Assembly: GCA_027313145.1 (NCBI GenBank)
Contig: DAHVEJ010000001.1
Span: forward strand, 6,698 to 70,697
Direction: 5' to 3'
DNA: 64,000 bases
DNA from: Phycisphaerales bacterium
Lineage (GTDB): Bacteria > Planctomycetota > Phycisphaerae > WQYP01
The position numbers and the translations under genes were made by a program. The notes beneath the pieces were generated by a model. The model did not search any database. It was given only the letters and a program-made list of their open reading frames with translations, and was not told where the DNA came from. Shown here in pieces: positions 7,064-58,388 of this stretch; the first letter of the stretch is position 1, and every line of letters starts with the position of its first letter.

Positions 7064-7343
7064 GGAGACTGTCCGAGTAATGGCCGGGATTGCGATGGGG
7101 CTGAAATAGCCCGTATTCGCGGCGGAGGATCGAGCTGACTCTGGATAATGAGTCTGCGAGATCCGACAACAAAGCAGACGGGGCATTTCAGGCCCACCCG
7201 CAGGGCGGGATGCTTTTTGGCTCCCCTCTGCGGCGCAGTTCCTCGGCGTACCATCCGTGTCAGGTACGCCATCGTCGCTGCTTCTTGTATGTTGGAGCCA
7301 AAAATCATCCCGGCGCAACCTGGCCATTACTCGGACAGGCTCC
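7064..7343. repeat. Repeat family A, full-length copy: 280-bp element bounded by 22-bp imperfect terminal inverted repeats (GGAGACTGTCCGAGTAATGGCC ... GGCCATTACTCGGACAGGCTCC) with nested internal stems.
   Basis: TIRs at 7064-7085 and 7322-7343. Inner stem TTTTTGGCTCC/GGAGCCAAAAA (7214-7224 / 7294-7304) encloses hairpin GGCGTACC/GGTACGCC. A 145-bp 5' core is repeated at 32047-32192. Confidence 0.7.
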
Positions 7344-15265: not shown

Positions 15266-16437
15266 AACCTTGGCGACATTTATACTATGCGCAAAATTCC
15301 TTTTTCGCCACTAGGAGCATGTCCGGGTGCTCTGTAACGCCTAAAAAAACGCCCGGCAATTCAGCAGCCAAAGGCCACCGAATTGCCGGGACAGGTCTCT
15401 CCCCCCCTCCGGGGGGGGTGAGCCTTGCGCCTTCCGCCGTGGGAAAGGCGCAAAGCCACCGCACTTCTCTCTCTTTCTCCCTCCGCAAATTGTCTTTCTA
15501 CCAGGCGCGCCCAAAGGCGCTGACGAACTTGAATCTTTGGCCGCAACTCAGGAGCGTTCCCGGGTAATACCCGGACAGGCTCCTAGACGGCCATGGCGCT
15601 CTAACTCATCCAAACCCGTCCGATGACGGATAAACAAACCTCTCGCTCCCTCCATGGGGAAATCAAGCCACAAAATTTTTCTCATACGGGCGAATACCGC
15701 GAACCATAAGCTCATCGTGAGACCCATGGATTGCTGATTTTGAATTGCGTCAGCACGCGGATTAATTTTCGCCTCTTCTCTTGTGCAGTGTTTCAGTCGA
15801 TATGTGTCTGAATTCTTGTTACCTGCACAGTTAATGTATCGGCAGATACGCCCCGGAAGCACACAAAAAATTCGCGATTTTCCCCAGCAAATTCAGGGGT
15901 TCCAATAACATTACGCCCTGATAAAACTCCGCCGGTAAAAACGGCCGGCGAAGCACTTAGAACGCCGGAGTCAGTAGATGGTGACACCGGGCGCGCCCTG
16001 CGACCAAAATATCAGTGATCGCGATTCCGACGCATTCTAACTCCTATGTGCTCATGCAACGCCTAACCCATATCTCGCCATCCCCGCAGGTGATCTGGGC
16101 AATTTTCCCGGGCGGGGTCAATATTGTTGTTTAATGGGTGGGATCGCGCCAATGACAGCCGGAACCTTCGGCTGCGGCGGGCGAGTTTTTCGCGACGCGG
16201 CGGCACATTAAATGTGCCGGCTAACATCACTGATGAGGTGCCCCCCCGCGGGTGATCTGGGCAATTTTTCATCCACCGTGCCCGGTCATGCGTATAATGG
16301 GGTGACTTGGTGGAGTGCACTGTAAAAAGTCGAGTCGGCATTGTGCCGGCATAAGTATGAATAAGTTGTTGCGGTGATGCTGATGGTGGTCATCGGTACG
16401 CTAAAACAAGGTCTCTTTTTTGTGGAGTTGCGTTATG

Positions 16438-16919: not shown

Positions 16920-19628
16920 TTACATTACCACAGAATTAACTGCGGCGGTCGTCAGCGTTTCAGGGCCTCCGAGTTTGGCATCCGTGCAGGGCTGCAGGGT
17001 AATGACGGTATTTAAGTGGATGTCCGCCGAGGAACTTCCCACCAACACTTTCAACGTTCCCGGTTGGAGCACGAATTTGCGCTGCGTTTCCTGCCAGTAC
17101 CATAGCGCCTGCTCGGTATATGGAACGGTGAATTCCACACGTCGGCTTTCGCCGGGTTTAAGCTCCAGGCGTTGAAAGCCCACAAGCTGCTTGATCGGCC
17201 GCTTGACCGGAGATGCGGGTGCCTGCACATACAGTTGCGCCACTTCCGCACCGGCGTACAAGCCGGTGTTGGTTATCACTGCTGAAACCACAACCGATTC
17301 ACCAGCACCGAGTGTGGCCCTTGAAATAGCAAGGTCGCCGTACTTAAAGCTCGTGTAGCTTAAGCCGTAGCCGAACGGATACAGCGGATCGCCTTCAAAG
17401 TACATGTACGTGCGGCCTTTCATAATGTCGTAGTTATGGAATGGCGGGAGTTGATCCACCGACTTATACCAGGTACAGCAGGTTTTGCCGCCCGGGTTGT
17501 AATTTCCAAACAAAACGTCGGCAATGGCGGTTCCCTGAGCCTGCCCGGCGAACACAGCCGATACAATGGCCGGAAGGTGTTCCTGTTCCCAATTAACGGC
17601 TACTGTATTGTTGCTGGAGATGACCAGCACGGTTTTTGGATTGGCTTTGAAGCACGCCTGAATTAATTCGTGCTGTACACCGGTGAGTTTGGTATTTTTG
17701 CGATCATGCGCTTCAGCGTCCACCTGTTGATCCACGCCGCAGACCATGATGACCACATCGGCACTTTTTGCGGCGTCTACCGCCTCGGCGAACATCGTGT
17801 CATCTTTCGGGCCCTCCACGGTGCAGCCCGGCTTGAAGACCACCACCGGCTGACCCGGCCGGGGTTGCGGTTTGGGAGGCGCGGTAACAGGCTGAAGCTG
17901 GAACCATTCAACATTGCACATGGGGCCGCCTTGGTGCCCGGCGAATTTGAAAAATACTTTATGTTTTCCGGTTATGCCGCTGATAGCGGCGGAAACCGTC
18001 GTCCAATGCTGCCAGCCGCCGGTTCGCGGCACCGTCAGAGTCGCAATTTTTCTGCCATCCAGCGAGTCGATATGGACATGAATAACCGCTCCACCGCTCG
18101 GGCTGGAAACGCGAATGGCAATATGATTTTTACCGGTAAAATCCTGGGGCTTGTATTGCACCCACGCCCCGTCGTCAATCCAACCAATGTTCACACCGCC
18201 TTCACTGGAACCTTGCGTTTGCACACCCGCGCTGACCGCTTGGAGTTCCTGCGGCCAAACGTGCTCATGCGGGAGATAAACCGACGCCCCCAGAGCGTGG
18301 GCAATGCCCTCATACGGTGAAATACGCACAAATGGCGAGCCACTGTAGCCGCCAAGATGGCACTGGCCTGCCGTAGGCCCGATGACCGCGACGGTTTTGA
18401 GATCTGATTTTTGCAGGGGCAAGAAGTTATTGTCATTCTTCAACAAAACAATGGATTGCCGTGCGGCTTTCAGCGCCAATTCCCGATGAGCTGGGGAATC
18501 AACCACATCAAAGCCGATGCTGTTATAGGGAACGCTTTCCGGAGAATCAAATTCCCCAAATAGCACGCGGACGGTCAACAGGCGTGTAACCGCCCGGCTG
18601 ATATCCGCTTCACTGACAAGCTCATCCGCCACAGCCTTGCCCAGATGCTTGGGCAACGTATCGCCGCAATTAAGATCGCAACCAGCCTGCATAGCGGCAC
18701 CAGCCGCCTGATGCAGGGTAGGCAGGTAATGGTGCGGATTGAAAATGTTATATATGGCGTCACAGTCGGAAGTGACATAACCGCGAAAACCCCAGCGATC
18801 CCGCAGCAAGCTGGTCAAAAGAAAGCGATCGGCGCTGCAGGGGACCCCGTTAATTGCGCTGTACGCACTCATAAAGGTAAAAACGTCCGCATCCAAAGCG
18901 CAGGTGCGATAGGCCCGTGTGTAATATTCCCAGAAATTCCGCGGGCTTACTGAAGCGGAAACACTGGTGCGATCATCATCGGTATTGTTGCAGATAAAAT
19001 GTTTGGCGCACGCGGTGGTTTTCAGGTAATTGGGATTATCCCCCTGCATGCCCTTAATGACGTTTACCGCCCAAGTTCCCGCAAGGCATGGATCTTCTCC
19101 CGGCGCTTCTTCACAACGCCCCCACCGCGGGTCACGATGCAAATTCAATGTTTGCGGCGAATAATAAGCTAATCCGACATTTTCTTTTTTGTTGTAGGCC
19201 CGCGCCTCATCCGACACGGCGGTATATACCTCCAACGCCAAGCTTGGATTCCACGAGCAGGCCATCGCCAGCGGCAGCGGGAAGCTGGTCACGGGACCAC
19301 CGCGCACCAAGCCGTGCAACGCTTCACCGGAATAGTAATTATAGGCCGGCAGGCCAATGCGTTTGATGGCCGGAGCCTGGTTGCCGGTCTGGGCGATTTT
19401 TTCCGCCAGAGTCATTTTGGCTACCATGGCGGAAGCCCGTTGCCAGGCTTTTTTATAGGCCGCTTCGGATATACCAACACGCTCGAATTCAGGCGAGCCA
19501 GCCTTAATATCTGCGTTTCCCTGCGACTGCTCTGCGCACCCGGCCAGAGTCGCTGCGCCAACGGCCGTTGCCCCGGCAAGAAAAGCCCTGCGATTGATAG
19601 TATGCTTGACGACCAGTGAATGTGACAT
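16920..19628 (-). CDS. Glycoside hydrolase family 3 beta-glucosidase/beta-xylosidase, Tat-secreted.
   Basis: Tat motif NRRAFLAG with an AGCA lipobox-like site. GH3 motifs (KHF..N, GFRGYVTSDCDAI) and a C-terminal beta-sandwich. Confidence 0.9.
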   Translation of the reverse strand: MSHSLVVKHTINRRAFLAGATAVGAATLAGCAEQSQGNADIKAGSPEFERVGISEAAYKKAWQRASAMVAKMTLAEKIAQTGNQAPAIKRIGLPAYNYYSGEALHGLVRGGPVTSFPLPLAMACSWNPSLALEVYTAVSDEARAYNKKENVGLAYYSPQTLNLHRDPRWGRCEEAPGEDPCLAGTWAVNVIKGMQGDNPNYLKTTACAKHFICNNTDDDRTSVSASVSPRNFWEYYTRAYRTCALDADVFTFMSAYSAINGVPCSADRFLLTSLLRDRWGFRGYVTSDCDAIYNIFNPHHYLPTLHQAAGAAMQAGCDLNCGDTLPKHLGKAVADELVSEADISRAVTRLLTVRVLFGEFDSPESVPYNSIGFDVVDSPAHRELALKAARQSIVLLKNDNNFLPLQKSDLKTVAVIGPTAGQCHLGGYSGSPFVRISPYEGIAHALGASVYLPHEHVWPQELQAVSAGVQTQGSSEGGVNIGWIDDGAWVQYKPQDFTGKNHIAIRVSSPSGGAVIHVHIDSLDGRKIATLTVPRTGGWQHWTTVSAAISGITGKHKVFFKFAGHQGGPMCNVEWFQLQPVTAPPKPQPRPGQPVVVFKPGCTVEGPKDDTMFAEAVDAAKSADVVIMVCGVDQQVDAEAHDRKNTKLTGVQHELIQACFKANPKTVLVISSNNTVAVNWEQEHLPAIVSAVFAGQAQGTAIADVLFGNYNPGGKTCCTWYKSVDQLPPFHNYDIMKGRTYMYFEGDPLYPFGYGLSYTSFKYGDLAISRATLGAGESVVVSAVITNTGLYAGAEVAQLYVQAPASPVKRPIKQLVGFQRLELKPGESRRVEFTVPYTEQALWYWQETQRKFVLQPGTLKVLVGSSSADIHLNTVITLQPCTDAKLGGPETLTTAAVNSVVM

Positions 19629-19796
19629 GCGTTTCTCCTGAATAAAGGAACATCATTATCATACGTCGCGCTGAATTATTTGCCCGAATCTCTTTCACCA
19701 AGAGTTCGTTACCCGCAGTTGTTTCGTATGATATTGTGCCGACATAGAACCCGCAACATTGCAACCTCCGGGCAGTAGCGGGGTAGCGGGGTTCGT

Positions 19797-19907
19797 GGCA
19801 ATATTTCCGGGCAGGCGGCGAAATCGACGGCATACATGCCGGCGCTAAGATAATGGATGGTCTTGGAAACGCGCACGGCAGGGCCTTGCCCGGATTTATT
19901 GCCACGC
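19797..19907. repeat. Repeat family B copy 1 (111 nt), about 86% identical to 41261-41373, with imperfect inverted ends (GGCAATA.../...TATTGCC).
   Basis: Direct sequence comparison of the two intergenic segments. Both are in the same orientation. Confidence 0.7.
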
Positions 19908-20033
19908 CAGTCTCGGGGTGACCTTCGGGGCAACGTCGGGAAATTAATTCAGTGCAGATTTCGCTGTGGCCACGCCACGATTGCTAAATCGCTATAGAAT
20001 ATCTGTTGTAGGATCAGGAAAGGATCGCGATTC

Positions 20034-21713
20034 ATGCGTATTGCCATGGCCCAGCTCAACCCCACCGTCGGTGATATTGCGGGAAATACCCGGCGCATCA
20101 TCAGCGCGATGAATCAGGCAATCGGGCAAGGTGCCGAATTGCTGGTGTCGCCGGAATTGTCCATCATTGGATATCCGCCGCGGGATTTGCTTTTAAAACC
20201 CAGCGTGCTGCATCAGATGCGGAACGCTGTAAATGATATTGCCCGGCACAGCAAAGGTATTACCACCATGGTCGGCTACGCGCAGGAAAATCCCGGTGTG
20301 TCGGGCCGCACGCTTTACAATGCCCTGGCGGTGGTTCGGGATGGGGCGATCCTTCATCGGGGCGTTAAAAGCCTGTTACCAACTTATGATGTTTTTGATG
20401 AAAGCCGATATTTTGAACCCGGCCCCAAAACGGAAACGGTGATGCTCGGTTCGCTGCGCATCGGCTTGTCGATCTGTGAAGATTTATGGAATGACGAGCA
20501 GGTGGTCGGCCGGCAGATGTATACATTTAATCCTGTCGAGGCACTGGCCAAGGCCGGAGCTAATATGCTGGTCAATATCAGCGCTTCACCCTTTACGCTG
20601 GGGAAAAATGATTTTCGCCGAAAGCTTATCAGCCATCAGGCCCGTCGATGGAATATGCCCATTGTGTACGTGAATCAGGTGGGAGCGAACGATGAACTGA
20701 TTTTTGACGGCTGTTCCATGGCCTTTGACGCGGCGGGAAATCTGCTGGCGCAAGGCAAAGATTTCGAGGAAGATTTGATCGTTTTTGATTTGCCGGGGCC
20801 GGCGAAGCTGGATTGCCCGCCGCCGCGGACGGGAATTGCCTCCCTGCACGCGGCGCTGGTGCTGGGCTTGCGCGACTATGCTCGTAAATGTGGGTTCAAA
20901 ACAGCGGTGCTGGGACTTTCCGGGGGTATTGATTCCGCGGTAGTCGCGGCACTGGCGGCCGAGGCTTTGGGCCAAGATAATGTGACGGCCGTTGCGTTAC
21001 CCTCACGTTATAGCTCAGACCACAGTTTAAGCGATGCCCGCAAGCTCGCCGATGCGATCGGCATACATTTTTATGAACTTCCCATCGAAGCAGCACACCA
21101 GGCAATGGAAAAAACCCTGGAGAAATTTTTCCATAACACCCCATCGGGTCTGGCGGAAGAGAATTTACAAGCGCGTATCCGCGGCAATCTGCTGATGGCG
21201 TTGTCTAATAAATTCGGCCACCTGCTGTTAACCACCGGTAATAAAAGTGAAGTCGCCACCGGGTATTGCACACTTTACGGCGACATGTGCGGCGGCCTGG
21301 CGGTCATCAGTGATGTACCGAAAATGATGGTGTATGAACTGGCCAGAGAAATTAACCAACAGCGCCTGCGTTCGGGCCTGTCGGCAGCGATTCCCGAGGG
21401 ATCCATCACCAAACCACCGAGTGCGGAATTGCGCCCCAACCAGACAGATCAGGACAGTCTTCCCCCCTATCCGATGCTGGACGCAATTTTACGGCTTTAC
21501 GTGGAAGAGGAAAAATCGGTCTGGGAAATTATCGCCGCCGGCTTTGATAAACCGACAGTATTGCGCGTTGCGCGGCTGGTGGATATCAACGAATATAAAC
21601 GCAAGCAAATGCCACCGGGGCTGAAGGTAACATCCCGTGCGTTTGGCTACGGTCGCCGCATGCCTATTGCGCAACGCTACGACCCCGCAGCGATGGCCCA
21701 ACAGCCGGAATAA
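20034..21713 (+). CDS. nadE: Glutamine-dependent NAD+ synthetase.
   Basis: N-terminal CN-hydrolase domain and a C-terminal NAD synthase domain with PP-loop SGGIDSAVVAALA. Confidence 0.95.
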   Translation: MRIAMAQLNPTVGDIAGNTRRIISAMNQAIGQGAELLVSPELSIIGYPPRDLLLKPSVLHQMRNAVNDIARHSKGITTMVGYAQENPGVSGRTLYNALAVVRDGAILHRGVKSLLPTYDVFDESRYFEPGPKTETVMLGSLRIGLSICEDLWNDEQVVGRQMYTFNPVEALAKAGANMLVNISASPFTLGKNDFRRKLISHQARRWNMPIVYVNQVGANDELIFDGCSMAFDAAGNLLAQGKDFEEDLIVFDLPGPAKLDCPPPRTGIASLHAALVLGLRDYARKCGFKTAVLGLSGGIDSAVVAALAAEALGQDNVTAVALPSRYSSDHSLSDARKLADAIGIHFYELPIEAAHQAMEKTLEKFFHNTPSGLAEENLQARIRGNLLMALSNKFGHLLLTTGNKSEVATGYCTLYGDMCGGLAVISDVPKMMVYELAREINQQRLRSGLSAAIPEGSITKPPSAELRPNQTDQDSLPPYPMLDAILRLYVEEEKSVWEIIAAGFDKPTVLRVARLVDINEYKRKQMPPGLKVTSRAFGYGRRMPIAQRYDPAAMAQQPE

Positions 21714-21880
21714 GGGTTGGATAAGCCCGGTAGAGATCTCTTCATCAAGACAATTTTGAATTCCGCTGTAACTTTCTCCCGCCACGCGCGTTTGGCTAGC
21801 TTGTAGGCGACCGTTAGGGGATTACATCGGATGGTCCGATGGTCCGCAGGTGGTGCGTTCCAGTTAGTAAGGGGTTTTTT

Positions 21881-22369
21881 ATGCGTAAGTTTGTAGTAGC
21901 TTTACTGGCGGTATTATTGGTCGGTGCCATCGCGCCAATCATACCGCAGGCGGCTCAGGCACAAGTTGCCACGAGCACGGATCAAACCGGAACCTTAACC
22001 GGAAAAGTGGTGGATGCCAATGGAAATCCCGTCAGCGGAGCCATGGTAAATGTCATGCTGATCCCCAATAACGGCCCACGGCAGCGCGGTCGTATGAGGC
22101 CTAATCAGGTACAGCCGGGGCAGACGGTTTGGATTAAGCGAACCATGGTGCGTGGTATCACCAAAACCGCTGATGACGGCACATTTACCATCAATAACGC
22201 CCCCGTTGGAAGATATCGCATTTTCGTATTTGACCGCGGCGTCGGCTTTGGCCACGTTCAGAAGCCTGTTTCGGTGGCTTCGGGCGCAACCGGTGATGCC
22301 GGCACAATTACCTTGCAAAAAGGCCGTCCGGGCCGTGGTGGCCGCCGTGGCCCACCGCCGGGCCGCTAA
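21881..22369 (+). CDS. Secreted carboxypeptidase-regulatory-like (CarbopepD_reg) domain protein with a Gly/Arg-rich tail.
   Basis: Signal peptide MRKFVVALLAVLLVGA. The TGKVVDANGNPVSGAMV beta-sandwich motif. Confidence 0.5.
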   Translation: MRKFVVALLAVLLVGAIAPIIPQAAQAQVATSTDQTGTLTGKVVDANGNPVSGAMVNVMLIPNNGPRQRGRMRPNQVQPGQTVWIKRTMVRGITKTADDGTFTINNAPVGRYRIFVFDRGVGFGHVQKPVSVASGATGDAGTITLQKGRPGRGGRRGPPPGR

Positions 22370-22500
22370 TATACGAGTTTTTAACTGCATGGGCCTGAGG
22401 GGCGTAGCGGCCTATTGCCGCCCCATTCGCTGAGCCATAGCGCCAAAGTCCCGATCTCCTTCTAAACGGCTCACACCCTCATCATGCAGGGTAACAACCC

Positions 22501-22535
22501 CGTCCCGCAGGCTGAACCCTGCGGGACTTTTTTTG
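22501..22535 (+). terminator. Rho-independent terminator.
   Basis: GTCCCGCAGG-CTGAAC-CCTGCGGGAC followed by TTTTTTT. Confidence 0.75.
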
Positions 22536-22770
22536 GGCATTACACCACTATTTGACTTTATCGCTAAATAAGAATATAAGAATATAGCGAATGAGGCGGC
22601 GGGGCTGCTTGGGTTTGGAACATTCTTGACCGAGTATAATGTTCTGGGACTCCGGTTGCTTGCTGCTTCGCTAATTCCCTGTGGCCGCATCTTGGTGGAT
22701 GCGGTCGGTTGCTGTGGAAATCGGCACCGCATCAACTTGTTTGTGCGCCGAGTTTTATTGAGGTGTTCTT

Positions 22771-22971
22771 ATGACAGTTGATCGTGGTGTACGTATCGTG
22801 GCCGGTGCAATGGTGCTTATCAGCGTGGCCTTGGCGGTATGGGTTAATCAGTGGTGGTTGGTGCTGGCCGCTTTTGTCGGCTTGAACCTGATCCAATCCG
22901 CCTTCACGGGCTTTTGCCCTGCGGAGAAAATTCTGGGACAATGTGGCTTGAAGCAAACGCATCAGGCGTAA
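22771..22971 (+). CDS. DUF2892 (YgaP-like) small inner-membrane protein.
   Basis: 66 aa with two TM helices and the conserved GxCP motif (FTGFCPAEKIL). Confidence 0.55.
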   Translation: MTVDRGVRIVAGAMVLISVALAVWVNQWWLVLAAFVGLNLIQSAFTGFCPAEKILGQCGLKQTHQA

Positions 22972-23027
22972 AATGGCAACGGCTGTTGTCTTGAGTTTGT
23001 GACAGTTTTAAATCGGGAGCGTGGATC

Positions 23028-24182
23028 ATGGCGAAACGCCGGCTCCAACTGAAAAATATTGCCCGTATTGCCGGGCGCATCGCAGGGGTGCTTCTGGCCA
23101 TACTATTGGTGGTGGCGCTGCTGCTGTGGAGCACGGGAGCGCTTAAGGCGAAAATCTCACCGGGGTCGCTACCGGTGCCAACCACCAAGCCATTCCAGGG
23201 TGCCACGGCCATCGTGGCGGTCCAATCCATTTCGCAGAATCTCCGCGCGGTGGGCACCATCACACCGATCGCACCGGTACTGTTGACACCGCGAATCGTA
23301 GGGCGAATTGTTTTCAGCCGCTTAATCGCCGGTGGCACCGTGCGAAAAGGTCAAGTGCTGGTGCGCCTGGATTCGGCGCAGCTCAAAGCCCAGGTGGCGC
23401 AGACCGCAGCTGCGGTGTTGTTGGCCAAAGCACAATTGCGCCAGGCGTTGATTGACCAGAAGCGGGACAAAACACTGTTAACCACTGGCGATGTCACCAC
23501 GGCAACGATGGATGTGGCAGATACCGCGGTAGCTTCGGATCGCGCGAATCTGGCACATGCCTTGGCGGAAATGCAGGCGGCACAGGCCGTTCTGGGCTAC
23601 ACCACCATCCGCTCGACGATCAACGGAATCGTGATGCAAAAATATGTCAACGTGGGGGATACCGTTATGCCCGGTCAGATGCTGGCCAAACTTTATGATC
23701 CCCATAAACTTCAGTTGGCGGCCGTGGTGCGGGAATCTCTCGCTTCTTTGCTGCACCTGGGGCAAAAGATGTCCGTGCGACTGGAAGGTTTCCACGCCAC
23801 CGTGCAAGCACACATCCGACAAATTGCGCCGCGTGTCAATGCGCAAAGCCGCAGTTTTATTGTGAAAGTTACCGGCAAATTTCCGTCCGGTGTATGGCCG
23901 GGAATGTATGGCAATCTAATTATTCCTACCGGATCGCATAAAGTTTTGGTGGCACCCCAAGCCGCCATTAAGCATATTGGTCAACTGGATCTCGTGACGT
24001 TACTTGTCCATGGGCGTCTGGTGCGTCAAACAGTTCAACCCGGGCGGCATATTGGTTCCATGCGGGAAATTCTTTCCGGCGTGGTAGCCGGACAGCGGGT
24101 GGTCGTGGCGTCCACGAAATCCCAAATCTCAAATCCCAAATCTCAAATGAGTCATTCCACCACCGTGGAGATCAACCCATGA
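23028..24182 (+). CDS. Efflux RND transporter periplasmic adaptor subunit (HlyD/MFP family).
   Basis: N-terminal TM anchor, coiled-coil and lipoyl/beta-barrel regions. Stop overlaps the RND start (ATGA). Confidence 0.85.
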   Translation: MAKRRLQLKNIARIAGRIAGVLLAILLVVALLLWSTGALKAKISPGSLPVPTTKPFQGATAIVAVQSISQNLRAVGTITPIAPVLLTPRIVGRIVFSRLIAGGTVRKGQVLVRLDSAQLKAQVAQTAAAVLLAKAQLRQALIDQKRDKTLLTTGDVTTATMDVADTAVASDRANLAHALAEMQAAQAVLGYTTIRSTINGIVMQKYVNVGDTVMPGQMLAKLYDPHKLQLAAVVRESLASLLHLGQKMSVRLEGFHATVQAHIRQIAPRVNAQSRSFIVKVTGKFPSGVWPGMYGNLIIPTGSHKVLVAPQAAIKHIGQLDLVTLLVHGRLVRQTVQPGRHIGSMREILSGVVAGQRVVVASTKSQISNPKSQMSHSTTVEINP

Positions 24183-27613: not shown

Positions 27614-27840
27614 CCCCGTTACGCCCGCGTTTATCTTCGTGATCCGTTATATTTGACATTTGGTTATTTAGGTTTACCACGAAGCTATTTCCTGATCCAG
27701 ATAATATTGTTTGTTACCGCCAGCGTGGCGGAGCCGGGAGTCAGAAGTTAGGAGTTGGGAGTTAGGAGAATGCAGCGCTGCGCTTCACTCAATGGCCAAC
27801 GGCCAAGGAACCATGAGCAAATTAAAAGGAATTCCATTTT

Positions 27841-28075
27841 TCTGATTATTGATCATTGATCTTTGATCATTGACTTGGGCGCGGAAACCCCGCGGCCCGG
27901 AGCGCAGAAAGCGCCGACGGAATTGGCTTTCAGAGATTGTTTCATCCCCGGCAACCATGCTGTAATGTTCACCTTTCCACTGCTCGCCTGTTCTATTGGG
28001 CCGCCGCCCAATCCGCTCTACTTTCAACTCTCTACTGCTCGCCTGCTCTAATCGGGCCGCAGCCCGATTTGTACT
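27841..28075. repeat. Compound repeat: TGATCA cluster (27849-27872) plus two REP-like palindromic units (27978-28016 and 28033-28073, each with hairpin GGGCCGC(A/C)GCCC).
   Basis: Reverse complement of the REP doublet recurs at 36563-36660. The second unit overlaps the last codons of argF. Confidence 0.7.
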
Positions 28076-32046: not shown

Positions 32047-32192
32047 GTCTAGGTGCCTGCCTTTCCGAGTAATGGCCGGGATTGCGATGGGTTTGAAATG
32101 CGCCGTATGCGATACGGTTGATCGAGCCGACTCTGAATAAGTAAGTCCGCGAGATTCGACAACAAAGCTGGCGGGGCATTTCAGGCCACCCG
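32047..32192. repeat. Repeat family A, partial copy (5' 145-bp core only, no right terminal repeat).
   Basis: Matches the left TIR and core of 7064-7208 at about 85% identity with small indels. Confidence 0.7.
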
Positions 32193-39252: not shown

Positions 39253-41070
39253 TTATCCGGTGCCACCGAATTTGTTCAATGTCTGTCGCATGGCCGAAGC
39301 GGGCGTATTGCTGTAAACCCGGCCACCGATGCGATTGACGATGTGCGCGATCTCGCTGCCTTTCCTTCCATTGAGCCAAATCGTCGTCATATTGTGTAAT
39401 TGAACCCCGTGGGCGGCAGGGGCCTCAATAGCGCTTTCGCATTTGATGACGGCATCACGAAAATAACAGTAGATTCCCAATCCCCAGGCTTCGTGGTGGG
39501 TAACTGTGTCCTTCACCTTATACGATGCGTAGCCATCGGTTTGGCCCACCATCCAGGATGCCTGGTTGGGCGGGTCGTAGGGCATTTCCGATTGATACAT
39601 GTACACGCGACCGCGGTTGCCATTCCAAAGCGTCTGGTATTGCTCGTGGTGCTCATTGAATAATCCATAACAGGTCACATCATCGCCGTTGACTACCAGT
39701 CCGTGCTTTGTGGGATTGGTTTTCCAGCCGACGCCATTGCCATGATCCGCCCGCCAAATCCAGATGTTATCCGTCACAACGTGGCGACTGTTAATGATAA
39801 TACCTGCATCGTTGCGACCCGCGGCCGGGCCGGCCGTTCGCACGGTTAAGTCATAAAGGAAGCTTGGATTGGCGGAGTGATCGGCCGCGCTGCCAACAGG
39901 ACCCAGTTCCAGCAGGCACGGAGAGTTGACCGGACCGGCATCCACAATAAGTCCGGCGATGGTCACGCCATCCACGTCAGCTACCGAAACGGCGGGCCGG
40001 CCGGTCATGGCTTTGAGCGAGGGCACGCCCAAGCCCAGAAGTATGGTGTTCGGTTGCGTCACGCGTAGTGTGTTATTTAATTTGTAAGTGCCGGGTGTAA
40101 AAATAAGATGTTTGCCGGCGGCCAGTGCCTTGTTCAGGCTGGAAGCCGAGTCTTTGGCGGGGTGCGCGATATAAAACCGATTTATGGGAATTGATTCGCC
40201 CGCCGTAGAGCCCGAAGCCCACGATACACCGACCGTGTTGCGCCGCAGCGCTGGAACAAAGACCGCAAATTCGCCGGATTTGTCGACAATGATATAGGGC
40301 TTTTCACGAATCACCGGCGTTTGGTCAACCACCGTATACGCGGGATTGGGAAACGTGTTCCCCGGAGCGTTTTGACACCCCACAAAAACCATGTTCCACA
40401 CGGCGTTGTTCCAGGCCGACCACTTGCTGTTGCGCGACAACCATTGCTGTTGTGACGCCGGGGCCACTTTGCCATCCACCACGGAATCAGCCAGAAACCC
40501 GCCGCTGGCCCAGCCCGCGCCGCAATTACATGACTTCCACACGTCATAGAGATCCAGGTTGCCTTTTACGTGCAGGCGACGCATCGGCGAGGCTTGGGAC
40601 ACCGCAATACGCGTAGTGCCTCCGGTGGCCGAGGGCAACACCGCATAGTTACTTACGGTCCGCCAGAAGTTGACTAAGGCCGCTCCGCCACTCCACTGGG
40701 CGTTGATGTTTACTCCGCCGTCAATAAGTACATCGTCGGGATTTTTCCCCAACCCCGCGACTTCCGTGTAAAAGCCGACGTTAAAATTCACCCGATAATT
40801 ACCGGGCTTGAATAAAAATGCATAGCCTTGCGATGCAAATTGATTCGACTCCATTTTTCTAAAAATAGTTCTGGTGATTTGATTAATCCCCTCGGCCGGC
40901 ATGTTCGCATCGAAAACATAAACATTTTCACCGAAGACCGTCTTGTTGGCCCGAGAAAGGGACGCGGCACGTTCCGCGGTCAGCAATGCCTGGGCGTCCG
41001 TTCGCGCAGGTGCCATAGATGCGACTGCGGCGGTGGACATAATTTTCATAAATTGTCGTCGGTTTGGCAT
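39253..41070 (-). CDS. Tat-secreted right-handed parallel beta-helix (pectin-lyase-fold) protein, probable polysaccharide-active enzyme.
   Basis: Tat motif RRQFMKI. Repetitive beta-helix sequence with N/G/V-rich turns and an N-terminal pectate-lyase-superfamily-like region. Confidence 0.5.
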   Translation of the reverse strand: MPNRRQFMKIMSTAAVASMAPARTDAQALLTAERAASLSRANKTVFGENVYVFDANMPAEGINQITRTIFRKMESNQFASQGYAFLFKPGNYRVNFNVGFYTEVAGLGKNPDDVLIDGGVNINAQWSGGAALVNFWRTVSNYAVLPSATGGTTRIAVSQASPMRRLHVKGNLDLYDVWKSCNCGAGWASGGFLADSVVDGKVAPASQQQWLSRNSKWSAWNNAVWNMVFVGCQNAPGNTFPNPAYTVVDQTPVIREKPYIIVDKSGEFAVFVPALRRNTVGVSWASGSTAGESIPINRFYIAHPAKDSASSLNKALAAGKHLIFTPGTYKLNNTLRVTQPNTILLGLGVPSLKAMTGRPAVSVADVDGVTIAGLIVDAGPVNSPCLLELGPVGSAADHSANPSFLYDLTVRTAGPAAGRNDAGIIINSRHVVTDNIWIWRADHGNGVGWKTNPTKHGLVVNGDDVTCYGLFNEHHEQYQTLWNGNRGRVYMYQSEMPYDPPNQASWMVGQTDGYASYKVKDTVTHHEAWGLGIYCYFRDAVIKCESAIEAPAAHGVQLHNMTTIWLNGRKGSEIAHIVNRIGGRVYSNTPASAMRQTLNKFGGTG

Positions 41071-41260
41071 TTATTATGTTGCTCCTGGAGACACACGTTG
41101 CATTTTCGACTGCGCGGACAGGCTCCCAGCCTTCAGTGCCTTGATTGTTAATTTAATGGTCGCAGGTCGTGGTCGCAAGTGCAACGGGTGATTGGCTGCC
41201 GCAGGTCCGTTGGCCGGTGCGCTGCCGCGTAAAGTATCGCGCATCGGTTTTGTTGGGCGG

Positions 41261-41373
41261 GGCAATATTTCGGGGCAGGCGGCGAAATCGACGGCATAAA
41301 TGGCGGCACTAAGAGAATGCTTGGCCTTGGAAACGCGCATCGCAGAGGCCCGGCCGAATTTATTGCCACGCCC
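41261..41373. repeat. Repeat family B copy 2.
   Basis: About 86% identity to 19797-19907, same orientation, intergenic. Confidence 0.7.
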
Positions 41374-41538
41374 GTTATGTTGTCCCTGCAGGAAAATGGC
41401 TTGCTTATTGAGAGGAGAAGGAACATACTTGAACGTGTCAATAACATGATCGCGATGATGGGCGGCGGGTGGTTGTTGGTGGGTCCGCAGCCGAGGCGCG
41501 AACGGGCGTTGGGTCTAAATGAAAAGGAAGTGTGCTGC

Positions 41539-41763
41539 ATGAACTGGAAGTTGGCGGTAGGAATCGTACTGATTGTATTGGGCGGGGCAGCTTTAGCGTT
41601 TAACGGTGTGACTTGGTATAGCCGCAAGCCGATCATCCGCATTGCCACGGTACACATGGATGTAACGGTCAAGCATAAACTGTTTGCCGAACCGATGGTG
41701 GCGGGTCTGGCCCTCGTTGCGGGCATAGTTCTGGTGGTGCTAAGCCGCAAGTCACCGCGTTGA
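41539..41763 (+). CDS. Small 2-TM membrane protein (74 aa).
   Basis: Start MNWKLAVGIVLIVLGG. The upstream part of the ORF 41317..41763 overlaps repeat B and is probably not coding. Confidence 0.4.
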   Translation: MNWKLAVGIVLIVLGGAALAFNGVTWYSRKPIIRIATVHMDVTVKHKLFAEPMVAGLALVAGIVLVVLSRKSPR

Positions 41764-47362: not shown

Positions 47363-47421
47363 CGGATAGAATGATAATTGCTGTCGCGGCAAATGGCAAG
47401 CGTGGCAGCGTGTCGCGTGAT

Positions 47422-47630
47422 GGAGCACCGTGGTGATAACCCGGCGGTTGGCTTGCGGCATGAGATCAACCACCGGATTACCATCCGGTGCTATGCGGAC
47501 GCGTCCGGTTAAAGAAAAAAGGTACCTGACACCTTTTTTCATGGCCGTGGCATAGAGCACCGTGGTGATAACCCGGTGGTTGGCTTGCGGCATTGGATCA
47601 ACCACCGGATTACCATTCGGTGCTCTTGAG
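47422..47630. repeat. Two 75-bp direct repeats (47422-47495 and 47557-47630, about 90% identical). Each contains hairpin CACCGG-ATTACCAT-CCGGTG. They are separated by an A/T-flanked bidirectional terminator-like hairpin (47509-47536).
   Basis: Direct reading. Lies in the divergent intergenic region between the ArsR-methyltransferase gene and manA. Confidence 0.65.
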
Positions 47631-52900: not shown

Positions 52901-53514
52901 TCAAGCAGAAATGCCGCGACCTGAATCTGCTGCGCCCGCAGGTGGTTTACGGCTACTTCTGGGTTCAGGCGGAAAAAAATGATTTAATTGTTTATGCCGA
53001 GGATAAAAAAACGCAGCGTCTGCGTTTTCATTTTCCCCGGCAACCGGGGCGCAAACGTTGGTGCCTTTCGGACTTTTTCCGTTCCGTGGATTCCGGCGAA
53101 ATGGACGTTCTGGCGTTGCAGTGCGTGACGGCGGGATCGGCCGTGGCCCCGTATGAAAAACAACTGTTTGAGCAGGGTGATTTCACCGAGTATCTCTACA
53201 TTCACGGGATGGGCGTACAGATTGCGGAAGCGTTGGCGGAAATGTGGCATAAACGCGTTCGCCAGGAATTGGGCATTGCGGATAAAGATGGTCCCACCAT
53301 GCGCGATATTTTCGCCTGCCATTTTCAAGGCTGCCGCTACAGCTTCGGCTACCCGGCCTGCCCGGATTTACAGGATGAAGAAAAGCTTTTCGCCCTGTTG
53401 GATCCCGCGCGCATCGGCTGCACATTATCCGAAAATTGGATGATTCAGCCGGAGCAATCCACCTCCGCGATGATCGTTCACCACCCCGAAGCCCGTTATT
53501 TTAACGTGCTGTAG
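49966..53514 (+). CDS. metH: Cobalamin-dependent methionine synthase.
   Basis: All four modules (Hcy-binding, pterin-binding, B12-binding and AdoMet activation) in 1182 aa. Confidence 0.97.
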   Translation: MSKKIENQNTSGLKQGAAGPMESHPFLDVLKHRVMVFDGGLGTQIFAANLTLADFNNLENCPEVLVLSRPDVIQSIHESYYAAGSDTVETDTFGASKIVLAEFGLQDQCREINRKAATLARNAANKFSTPDRPRFVAGSIGPGTKAITLGNTTFDIMHDSYLEQVRGLLDGGVDAILIETCFDLLQAKVAVIAATDAMEEMGVRVPIMVQVTMETVGTMLLGTEMNAVITTLEALPVDVIGMNCATGPELMRPHVETLSQNCTRYLSVQPNAGLPVLHEGRTHFPLGAAELAKAHVEFVQQFGVNIVGGCCGTTPEHIRAVAAAVAQLKPAVRSAHGRKMDAAHATISSLYSAVDARQDNSILIIGERTNTNGSKKFRDCLLAADWDTLTAIGREQVKEGSHVVDVCVDYVGRNGVPDMTDIVRRFAKEVTAPLMIDSTQLDVIEAGLQAAPGKCIVNSINLEDGEEKLARMAALLKRYGAAVVAGTIDEDKIEAMAKTADRKIEIAKRLYDLLVNKYGIPETNIYFDPLIFPIVTGQEEVRRLALETIDGIRRISEELPNCHTTLGLSNVSFGLKPYARLVLNSAFFNECVKAGLTSAIVHASKILPQNKIDPEHYQWALDLIYDRQREDYKPLQLLTNLGAPAKVAEATEQLPLEEKLRRHIIDGDKQKLSEHLDQAMTKYAPLDIINDHLLAGMKVVGDLFGSGQMQLPFVLQSAEVMKAAVAYLQPFMPKSEGQSRGRMVLATVKGDVHDIGKNLVDIILSNNGYTVVNLGIKQPIANIVQAAKEHNAQIIGLSGLLVKSTLVMRDDLQELNRLGIDIPVILGGAALTRGYVEKDLRDIYKGPLFYGKDAFEGLRVMDHVATGKISEILVATGESRQQADLRAKAGASPVTPETDIPKITCDDYANSGIRTDVAVPALPFYGSRVVTDIPVDAVFPYIDEVALFRGQWQFKSGTMPRDEFRQWTESHVRPIYNRIKQKCRDLNLLRPQVVYGYFWVQAEKNDLIVYAEDKKTQRLRFHFPRQPGRKRWCLSDFFRSVDSGEMDVLALQCVTAGSAVAPYEKQLFEQGDFTEYLYIHGMGVQIAEALAEMWHKRVRQELGIADKDGPTMRDIFACHFQGCRYSFGYPACPDLQDEEKLFALLDPARIGCTLSENWMIQPEQSTSAMIVHHPEARYFNVL

Positions 53515-53789
53515 CTGCGCCGCGTGGCCATAGCGCTGCACCAGATGCCGCATCGCACGGCAAATTGCGGGTAGAAAAAGAGGCTGACCTGGCCGTGATA
53601 AAATACCCATGGGTAATAATTGGCCGGAAGTATGCAGGAGGCACTACCCATTATCGACGACTGTTCGTATGGGGCGGATATTCCAATTGTCCAAGGGTAT
53701 TTCTCAACAGCACGTGAAAATCGGCGTGATTCCATCTGCATGGTCAAGGCCGACCATTTACTCTTGCGTAACGAAAAGGAGTATAAACG

Positions 53790-54512
53790 ATGACGGTCAT
53801 TTCTCTTTGTCTTGATACGCTGGCAGGCACAGCTCCATCGCCCCCGTCTCCGGACGCGCAAACTGTGAAGTTTATTATCGATCAAGTGGAGCACTTCTAC
53901 GGTGAGATGTTCCTTGGGATGACTGCCATTTACGCCCTAATCACTGCTATTTTCGGCTATCTTCTGCCTAAACAGCGTCTTAAATCCCTCCATAAAAAAG
54001 TCCAGGGGGCGCGCGCGGCGGCCCAACATGCCGTTACGACCATCGACCAAAAGCTTGCCTCCGCCAAGGAGGAGGTTGCCGTCGCTGTGGAACAGCTTCG
54101 GCACCTGACAGCTGCTGTCATGCGTTTTAACACGGGCCTGTTAGTGTACGCATCCGGCGCTCGAAAGGTGGAGATCGCCAGCATGAAAAGTGGCAGTCTG
54201 TCACAAAATCCCGATCTAATCCCTGCAAGCAAGGAAATGCTCATCGCCGCTCATGAATTCTTCGCCGCGGGTGATCGCCGAGCCTTCGGTGTCGCAGTAG
54301 GGCTTTCCATCATCTGGCTTAAAGAGCACTACAAATTCGCCCCGATTCCGTCAGATCGCCAGTTCCACGCCCTCATTGCTCAGACACAAAAGGAATACAG
54401 TGAAGCCATAAACCAGAGGGGCTGGGGAGAAACACCGGAATTACAACCATCCGAACAATTGGATTGGTTTCTCGGCTTGGGGTGCCGCAATGAAGCCGAA
54501 CCACCAAAATAA
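53790..54512 (+). CDS. Hypothetical protein (240 aa) with one TM segment and a coiled-coil region, located inside the metH-associated insert.
   Basis: ORF with a good RBS (AAAGGAG). Its first about 15 codons are paralogous to the ORF at 58240. Confidence 0.5.
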   Translation: MTVISLCLDTLAGTAPSPPSPDAQTVKFIIDQVEHFYGEMFLGMTAIYALITAIFGYLLPKQRLKSLHKKVQGARAAAQHAVTTIDQKLASAKEEVAVAVEQLRHLTAAVMRFNTGLLVYASGARKVEIASMKSGSLSQNPDLIPASKEMLIAAHEFFAAGDRRAFGVAVGLSIIWLKEHYKFAPIPSDRQFHALIAQTQKEYSEAINQRGWGETPELQPSEQLDWFLGLGCRNEAEPPK

Positions 54513-57257: not shown

Positions 57258-57584
57258 AGTAATTTCTGCATCCACGGGATGGGCGTACAGATTGCGGAAG
57301 CGTTGGCGGAAATGTGGCATAAACGCGTGCGCCAGGAATTGGGCATTGCGGATAAAGATGGTCCCACCATGCGCGATATTTTCGCCTGTCATTTTCAAGG
57401 CTGCCGCTACAGCTTCGGCTACCCGGCCTGCCCGGATTTACAGGATGAAGAAAAGCTTTTCGCCCTGTTGGATCCCGCGCGCATCGGCTGCACATTATCC
57501 GAAAATTGGATGATTCAGCCGGAGCAATCCACCTCCGCGATGATCGTTCACCACCCCGAAGCCCGGTATTTTAACGTGCTGTAG
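57258..57584 (+). pseudogene. Duplicated 3' fragment of metH (last about 108 codons), near-identical to 53190-53514.
   Basis: Protein tail HGMGVQIAEALAEMWHKRVRQELG...HHPEARYFNVL is identical. Only a few synonymous nucleotide differences. Homology continues about 60 nt past the stop codon. Confidence 0.85.
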
Positions 57585-58144: not shown

Positions 58145-58388
58145 TGCGGGACCCCCATGTTCATTTCAAATCTGTTTCGTGATGATACGGACAGCGATGG
58201 AATACGGCAACGCTTGCCTAACGAAAAGGAGTATAAACCATGACGGGCTTTTCTTTTTGCTCTGGCGCGCTGGCAGGAAGTGGAAATCATGCGGACAAAA
58301 TGCCTGTAGATGACGGTAACTACGGACGGATGGTACAACTATGCGAACGACCATGCGCAGCAAGACCCATACGAGCACCGGTGCGCCG

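Follow-up and report, generated by a model that had tools for sequence, protein, structure and literature searches.

Two intergenic copies of a short repeat lie in the 64,000-nucleotide stretch of Phycisphaerales DNA that we analysed (hereafter the window), and we hold with high confidence that both are old insertions of a 119-bp non-autonomous MITE, which shares its ends with an insertion sequence (IS) resembling ISKra4 and ISMich2. This identification is based on terminal inverted repeats, 8-bp target-site duplications, dispersed copies and a matching autonomous IS, and it bears out the small MITE that the original prediction had offered as the alternative to a family of sRNAs or cis-regulatory RNAs. 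Genomic parasites of this sort are common, and the element is no dedicated regulatory RNA.

The two copies, referred to here as copy A and copy B of family B (Table 1), have the same orientation and are 85-86% identical, in agreement with the figure of about 86% given originally. They have an exact 25-mer in common that is found nowhere else in the window (2 matches, with 0 expected) and is absent from 100 shuffles. The inverted ends first reported, GGCAATA.../...TATTGCC, are real, but their boundaries had to be corrected, since alignment of the copies together with their flanks showed that conservation continues for 6 nt past these ends on each side (GGGCGT/GGCAAT ... ATTGCC/ACGCCC, with slashes at the earlier boundaries). 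The termini are imperfect inverted repeats of approximately 25 nt (GGGCGTGGCAATATTTCCGGGCAGG ... CCTGCCCGGATTTATTGCCACGCCC), which deviate from a 22-nt pattern by 0-4 mismatches per end over 11 loci, and the spacing of the terminal repeats is exactly 119 bp in 10 of these loci and 120 bp in the eleventh. Most differences between copies A and B fall in the 3' half, the 5' half being almost identical, and the clustering of mismatches noted earlier thus holds for this pair. In the family, as judged from 10 independent copies, the distribution of substitutions is overdispersed (dispersion 1.68), two variable segments being about 25% divergent compared to 8-11% elsewhere, but spatial autocorrelation is not significant (p = 0.32), and the unevenness is in part an ascertainment effect of the 20-mer used for finding copies. 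The 119-bp element has no coding capacity and is crossed only by spurious overlapping ORFs. False translation of both copies had rightly been suspected, as the ORFs that run over them (19504-19905 and 41148-41750, both on the minus strand) are spurious readings and include AIYAVDFAACPEILPR, which is the minus-strand reading of the conserved core.

Table 1. Features of the two window copies (window coordinates), 8-mers flanking further copies, and full-length insertion sequences with the same ends (coordinates within the named locus).
Feature	Position	Strand	Remarks
Copy A, MITE of 119 bp, non-coding	19791..19909	+	Family HMM E = 1.4e-36; terminal-repeat pair 119 bp apart
Copy A left terminal inverted repeat GTTCGTGGCAATATTTCCGGGCAGG	19791..19815	+	First 22 nt: 2 mismatches to the 22-nt pattern common to MITE and IS
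Copy A right terminal inverted repeat, reverse complement TGGCGTGGCAATAAATCCGGGCAAG	19885..19909	-	Terminal 22 nt: 1 mismatch to the 22-nt pattern
Copy A left target-site duplication GTAGCGGG	19783..19790	.	6/8 match to right-hand GTCTCGGG
Copy A right target-site duplication GTCTCGGG	19910..19917	.	
Copy B, MITE of 119 bp, non-coding	41255..41373	+	Family HMM E = 2.3e-36; terminal-repeat pair 119 bp apart
Copy B left terminal inverted repeat GGGCGGGGCAATATTTCGGGGCAGG	41255..41279	+	First 22 nt: 2 mismatches to the 22-nt pattern
Copy B right terminal inverted repeat	41349..41373	-	Terminal 22 nt: 2 mismatches to the 22-nt pattern
Copy B left target-site duplication GTTTTGTT	41247..41254	.	7/8 match to right-hand GTTATGTT
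Copy B right target-site duplication GTTATGTT	41374..41381	.	
L031 flanking 8-mer GCCACACG	left / right		8/8
L025 flanking 8-mer GCAATATT	left / right		8/8
L064b flanking 8-mer GACGGGGC	left / right		8/8; ortholog L023 7/8
L064a flanking 8-mers CGAACCTC / CGCACCTC	left / right		7/8
Full-length ISKra4-like IS, L093	11-1561		
Full-length ISKra4-like IS, L099	144-1709		
Full-length ISKra4-like IS, L100	89-1654		
Full-length ISKra4-like IS, L150	5549-7105		
Full-length ISKra4-like IS, L151	4181-5745		
orfA, L099	203-526		
orfB, L099	456-1682		
orfA, L093	1151-1456	-	
orfB, L093	37-1254	-	

Further copies were sought with the 20-mer GGCGGCGAAATCGACGGCAT in one genome per species, which returned 77 stretches that were then analysed by BLAST and HMM. 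Full-length relatives among these stretches came only from the Planctomycetota MAGs WY1.bin60 (JAKAEZ01) and YP3.bin105 (JAKATV01), which are 98-99% identical where they overlap and have two orthologous insertions in common. The additional copies that the original prediction had looked for by homology search therefore exist: the two MAGs add 9 distinct full-length loci to the window copies, which brings the total to 11 distinct loci, with unrelated flanks, across three genomes or MAGs. None of the flanks of the MAG copies is homologous to the window, indicating that the repeat is dispersed, and all family copies are intergenic, lying sense or antisense to their neighbour genes and upstream or downstream of them. 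The remaining matches to the 20-mer, from Neisseria, alphaproteobacteria and others, extend over only 20-27 nt around the seed and were rejected as chance or coding matches that do not belong to the family. We also observed an orthologous family-B pair in both MAGs (L013 81-193 and L037 3585-3697) in which the first 11-16 nt of the left end are missing and unrelated sequence stands in their place; this copy is truncated and presumably immobile.

The 8 nt directly outside the element ends are direct repeats and are the footprint of staggered-cut transposition. At this one offset, the flanks of 10 independent loci matched at 56 of 80 positions, compared to 15-27 matches at the 15 other offsets tested. 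When flanks from different loci were cross-paired, 20.6 +/- 3.6 matches were obtained, with a maximum of 34, and not one of 37,006 derangements reached 56. Since the duplications around the two window copies have decayed to 6/8 and 7/8, and since family copies are mutually 75-92% identical, the window copies appear to be old insertions, probably immobile by now, in intergenic DNA that contains promoters.

In addition, we scanned metagenomes with the end pattern GCGTGGCAATWWWTCCGGGC, which yielded 56 loci, and paired the inverted terminal-repeat matches. Short elements with the same ends were found in sizes of 127-130, 138-141, 151-152, 182, 194 and 278 bp, another such element of 171 bp is present at the MAG locus L007, and perfect 8/8 duplications flank ten of the sister elements. 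With the exception of L129, the interiors of the short sister elements are unrelated to family B. Long elements of 1551-1566 bp with perfect terminal repeats were recovered as well, three in the scan (L093, L099 and L100) and two in look-ups (L150 and L151). Read from the sequences, the ends of these long elements (GGGCGTGGCAATTTTTCCGGGC) are identical to the left-end consensus of the MITE at 24 of 25 positions. The interiors of the short sister elements gave no match to the IS interior, and neither did that of family B, such that only the ends link MITE and IS. L150 and L151 are located on longer contigs, that of L150 being 126 kb in length, and both come from ENA assemblies that also hold relatives of the nadE and LAM55 genes of the window organism. 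Both ends of L150 carry the same three variant bases (GGGTGTGGCAATTTTTTGGGGC) and have thus changed in step.

The long elements encode two ORFs, orfA with about 100 aa and orfB with 405-408 aa, which overlap in L093, L099 and L100. Relative to orfA, orfB is read in the +1 frame; in L099, CTTTTTCCCCC is part of the overlap. orfB matches the NCBIfam model transpos_ISKra4 (E = 1.6e-47 and 1.4e-48) at 162-166 bits, below the curated 205-bit cut-off, and also matches transpos_ISLre2. In Pfam, the L099 protein matches UPF0236 (38.4 bits, with a cut-off of 24.3 bits) and the L093 protein has no match. Judged from these profile matches, the protein is probably a DDE transposase, encoded in two ORFs, that belongs to the ISKra4 family sensu lato (prokaryotic Mutator-like p-MULT 4). 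Its homologues number in the thousands, and most of their contigs measure about 1.5-2 kb, which is what a repeat that interrupts assemblies should produce; a tblastn search of the window and the fetched MAG loci detected no transposase of this kind. No 8-bp duplication was found at any offset around the five full-length IS copies. We suspect that flanks were chimerically joined across the 1.5-kb repeat in short-read assemblies, or that copies recombined with each other, and that the MITEs, being below k-mer or read length, assemble correctly, unlike the 1.5-kb IS.

This assignment agrees in most respects with the published description of the group. p-MULT elements have inverted repeats of 18-39 bp that end in C and direct repeats of 8 or 9 bp (Guerillot et al. 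2014, PMC3942029), and p-MULT 4, with its ISAzba1, ISMich2 and ISKra4 groups, has been reported in Planctomycetes (PMC3942029). Here, the transposase of the partner IS matches transpos_ISKra4, the inverted repeats are 25 nt long and end in C (...ACGCCC), the direct repeats of the MITE, at 8 bp, are within the reported 8-9 bp, and Planctomycetes are among the reported hosts. The window element differs in that it lacks a transposase and has only its ends in common with the IS, while the IS differs in that its transposase scores below the curated cut-off and its full-length copies lack a direct repeat. The ISMich2 group has a two-ORF transposase that is restored by a -1 frameshift (PMC3942029), and the present IS, which is about 1.56 kb long with two overlapping transposase ORFs, resembles it except that orfB is +1 relative to orfA, not -1, which is the sole misfit to that description. 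In the literature we found no description of MITEs for this ISKra4-type IS family.

Correia/NEMIS elements of Neisseria and RUP of Streptococcus pneumoniae are bacterial MITEs, and the duplication of the Correia/RUP type is TA. Family B resembles them in being 100-150 bp long and non-coding, in having terminal inverted repeats of about 25 nt and a target-site duplication, and in its many dispersed intergenic copies, its potential to form a long hairpin and its presumed mobilisation in trans. It differs from them in that the duplication is 8 bp instead of TA, the ends match those of a Mutator-like ISKra4-type IS, the host belongs to the Phycisphaerae (Planctomycetota) and no promoter or IHF-type features were detected. 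MULE-derived MITEs of eukaryotes are non-autonomous derivatives of the Mutator superfamily with 8-9 bp duplications, and the terminal inverted repeats of MULEs are often long. They are alike in the 8-9 bp duplications and in having only the terminal repeats in common with the autonomous element, but the host here is prokaryotic and the terminal repeats are much shorter than those of many MULEs. In the mechanism that we infer for mobilisation of the window element, the transposase of such an IS, acting in trans, would bind both element ends, excise or copy the element, and insert it by a staggered cut, repair of which would generate the 8-bp direct duplication.

Copies A and B are both located in intergenic DNA. 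Copy A does lie upstream of nadE (20034-21713, plus strand), with its right end 124 nt from the ATG at 20034, and its left end lies 163 nt away from the start of the gene on the other side, which is divergent and codes for a GH3/CBM6 glycosidase (16920-19628, minus strand). The enzyme gene next to copy B (39253-41070, minus strand), whose start is 185 nt from the start of the copy, encodes a 605-aa protein that is annotated LAM55_pectate-like in the precomputed Pfam annotation of the database; the region on the other side, where a small membrane protein gene had been proposed, contains a small ORF of doubtful status and, at its 3' end only, a BlaR1-like gene. A promoter and terminator scan detected no sigma-70-like promoter in either intergenic region, and the sole terminator-like site in the scan is a weak one inside copy A. 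The idea of a sigma-54 promoter was ruled out by the motif spacing read in the sequence.

Given a mobile origin, the window copies could since have been domesticated and now modulate their neighbours as an mRNA hairpin, a terminator or insulator separating divergent genes, or a protein-binding site. Such a role would be compatible with the MITE identification, and we regard it as unlikely, though less so than the other alternatives. Start codons lie at distances of 124-185 nt from the two copies, both of which are placed in divergent promoter regions, and this placement would suit a regulatory role, as would the preference of ISKra4 and ISLre2 elements for insertion 50-250 bp from genes in a large-scale survey (PMC9208149) and the targeting, by several ISKra4-group members, of sites just upstream of sigma-A promoters (PMC3942029). 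The reported insertion preferences would, however, be enough to explain why the window copies occupy divergent promoter regions. The position of the copies is not conserved relative to any gene family, and neither a promoter nor a terminator signal was detected. Uneven substitution rates along the element could be read in favour of domestication, but this unevenness has no significant spatial structure and partly reflects the 20-mer ascertainment. Likewise, two other samples contain 99.6%-identical strains that retain copy B, but retention among strains that similar is uninformative on selection. Any effect on nadE or other neighbours is putatively incidental. A bolder version, to which we assign a somewhat smaller chance, is that the ISKra4 machinery delivers family B and its sisters to promoter-proximal sites and that the conserved interior GGCGGCGAAATCGACGGCATAAATGCCGGCGCTAAGAGAATG might act as a portable regulatory module or small-RNA cassette; if so, this module would rewire genes such as nadE in Phycisphaerae.

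The original prediction had favoured an sRNA or cis-regulatory RNA, which we now consider most improbable. Such a structured RNA would be made either within the leaders of nadE and other genes or from a promoter belonging to the element, and its long hairpin, closed by the element ends, would be the acting structure. Copy A, in its position upstream of nadE, does fold into a long hairpin (-53.4 kcal/mol, z = -4.97 compared to shuffles), and the consensus fold of 12 copies is essentially the two ends paired with each other, with standard pairs in 91.2% of the cells of the consensus structure. Shuffles, however, reach 91.0%, and copy B folds no better than shuffles on either strand (z = +0.44 on the plus strand and -0.39 on the minus strand). 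The covariation score was 0.111 compared to 0.107 for shuffles, with 142 of 500 shuffles scoring at least as high, and 2 pairs had double changes where 1.8 were expected; the RNAalifold covariation term, at +1.26, likewise gave no sign of covariation. Since pairing and covariation equal those of shuffles, substitutions in the two arms are independent and the complementarity is inherited from the terminal repeats, which fully explain the pairing; the conserved secondary structure that had been looked for is absent. Comparison with Rfam 15 at gathering thresholds gave no match anywhere in the window; for the surroundings of copy A, with the limit relaxed to E <= 10, it gave only a chance IRES match of 7.5 bits. 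Further arguments against an RNA are the occurrence of copies both sense and antisense and both upstream and downstream of genes, the lack of a sigma-70-like promoter, with a single weak terminator-like site confined to copy A, and the nadE genes of relatives at 80-89% protein identity (80% at the nucleotide level), which are without the element and where homology begins about 50 nt upstream of the ATG. An RNA function would also leave the target-site duplications and the IS-matched ends unexplained. The remaining alternative, a REP/REPIN repeat moved by a tyrosine transposase of the RAYT (IS200/IS605-like) kind, or else a repeat spread by recombination without transposition, would fit a short, intergenic, dispersed and partly palindromic element but has next to no probability, being refuted by the 8-bp target-site duplications, which RAYT-type and IS200/IS605-type mechanisms do not make, and by ends that are identical to those of a DDE-transposase IS and, as read from the sequence, are not self-palindromic units with a GTAG or CGTC head, such units being 20-40 nt long in REP/REPIN repeats.

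We additionally compared the two insertion sites with those of relatives. The nadE homologues examined together with their contigs were 98%, 89% and 88% identical, and at the LAM55 homologues, which were 86-91% identical, the intergenic DNA was unalignable or synteny was broken. A clean pair of filled and empty orthologous sites was recovered for neither copy, as relatives at 80-96% nucleotide identity were rearranged or unalignable there. In the closest relative found (L135, ENA ERZ27237538), which is 96.5% identical at the nucleotide level and corresponds to window 19951-23995, homology upstream of nadE stops 83 nt before the ATG. This contig carries a gene for an unrelated DDE_Tnp_1 transposase upstream of nadE (179-1540) and ends in that IS, suggesting that the region upstream of nadE is a repeated target of mobile elements. 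In further genomes (L141, L142 and L143), whose LAM55 gene is 89% identical to that of the window, a sister MITE of 127 nt (2178-2304) has ends of this type as well; the window lacks a site corresponding to its insertion. The names carried by close nadE and LAM55 homologues place the window organism in the Phycisphaerae (Planctomycetota).

Short-read assemblies of close strains break within the element. The Logan contig L001 (SRR10333328), which alone among recorded contigs encodes the exact nadE protein, starts at window position 19805, inside copy A, and the Logan contigs from ERR3200806 and SRR25885115, both 99.6% identical to the window, end at 41333, inside copy B. That short-read contigs from three samples end inside the window copies is expected for a repeat, and the identification of the element as a MITE explains why assemblies of this lineage break at these points. 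For annotation, the MITE identification removes two spurious ORFs and one false RNA-gene lead, and it leaves the understanding of any pathway unchanged. It also documents, in Planctomycetota-rich metagenomes, a superfamily of MITEs of 119-278 bp with ISKra4/ISMich2-like IS ends, for which the perfect 8-bp duplications provide the insertion footprint of that transposase clade.

Finally, the window contains several other repeats. A second family of about 130 nt, presumably the family A of the original prediction, is present at 7069-7194 and 32061-32187 in copies that are 83-91% identical, and a 77% copy occurs on the metagenome contig L128 (704-841). In this family, a GGGCTGAAAT motif close to the 5' end is complementary to the ATTTCAGGCCC found close to the 3' end; Rfam gave no match to it at gathering thresholds, and its ends are not of the ISKra4 type. 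At 16089-16268 we found a degenerate relative (87.5% over 136 nt) of the 171-bp sister MITE of YP3.bin105 (L007 3671-3841), which has the same terminal repeats as family B. The window unit keeps one of these ends, TGGGCAATTTTCCCGGGCGGGG, while the other terminal repeat is missing, and it is bracketed by an 18-nt direct repeat, GGTGATCTGGGCAATTTT (16089-16106 and 16251-16268). A dispersed repeat of about 270 nt at 27684-27944 recurs at 85% identity in WY1.bin60 (L023 3020-3289) and contains the short tandem motifs gttaggagttgggagttaggag and tgatcattgatctttgatcattga. Two duplicates, one of 300 nt (53192-53491 and 57262-57561, 98%) and one of 68 nt (53760-53827 and 58210-58277, 82%), lie approximately 4.1-4.5 kb apart and look like paralogous gene starts or a segmental duplication. 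Near-tandem copies of 73 nt, 93% identical and 132 nt apart, are located at 47420-47492 and 47552-47624.
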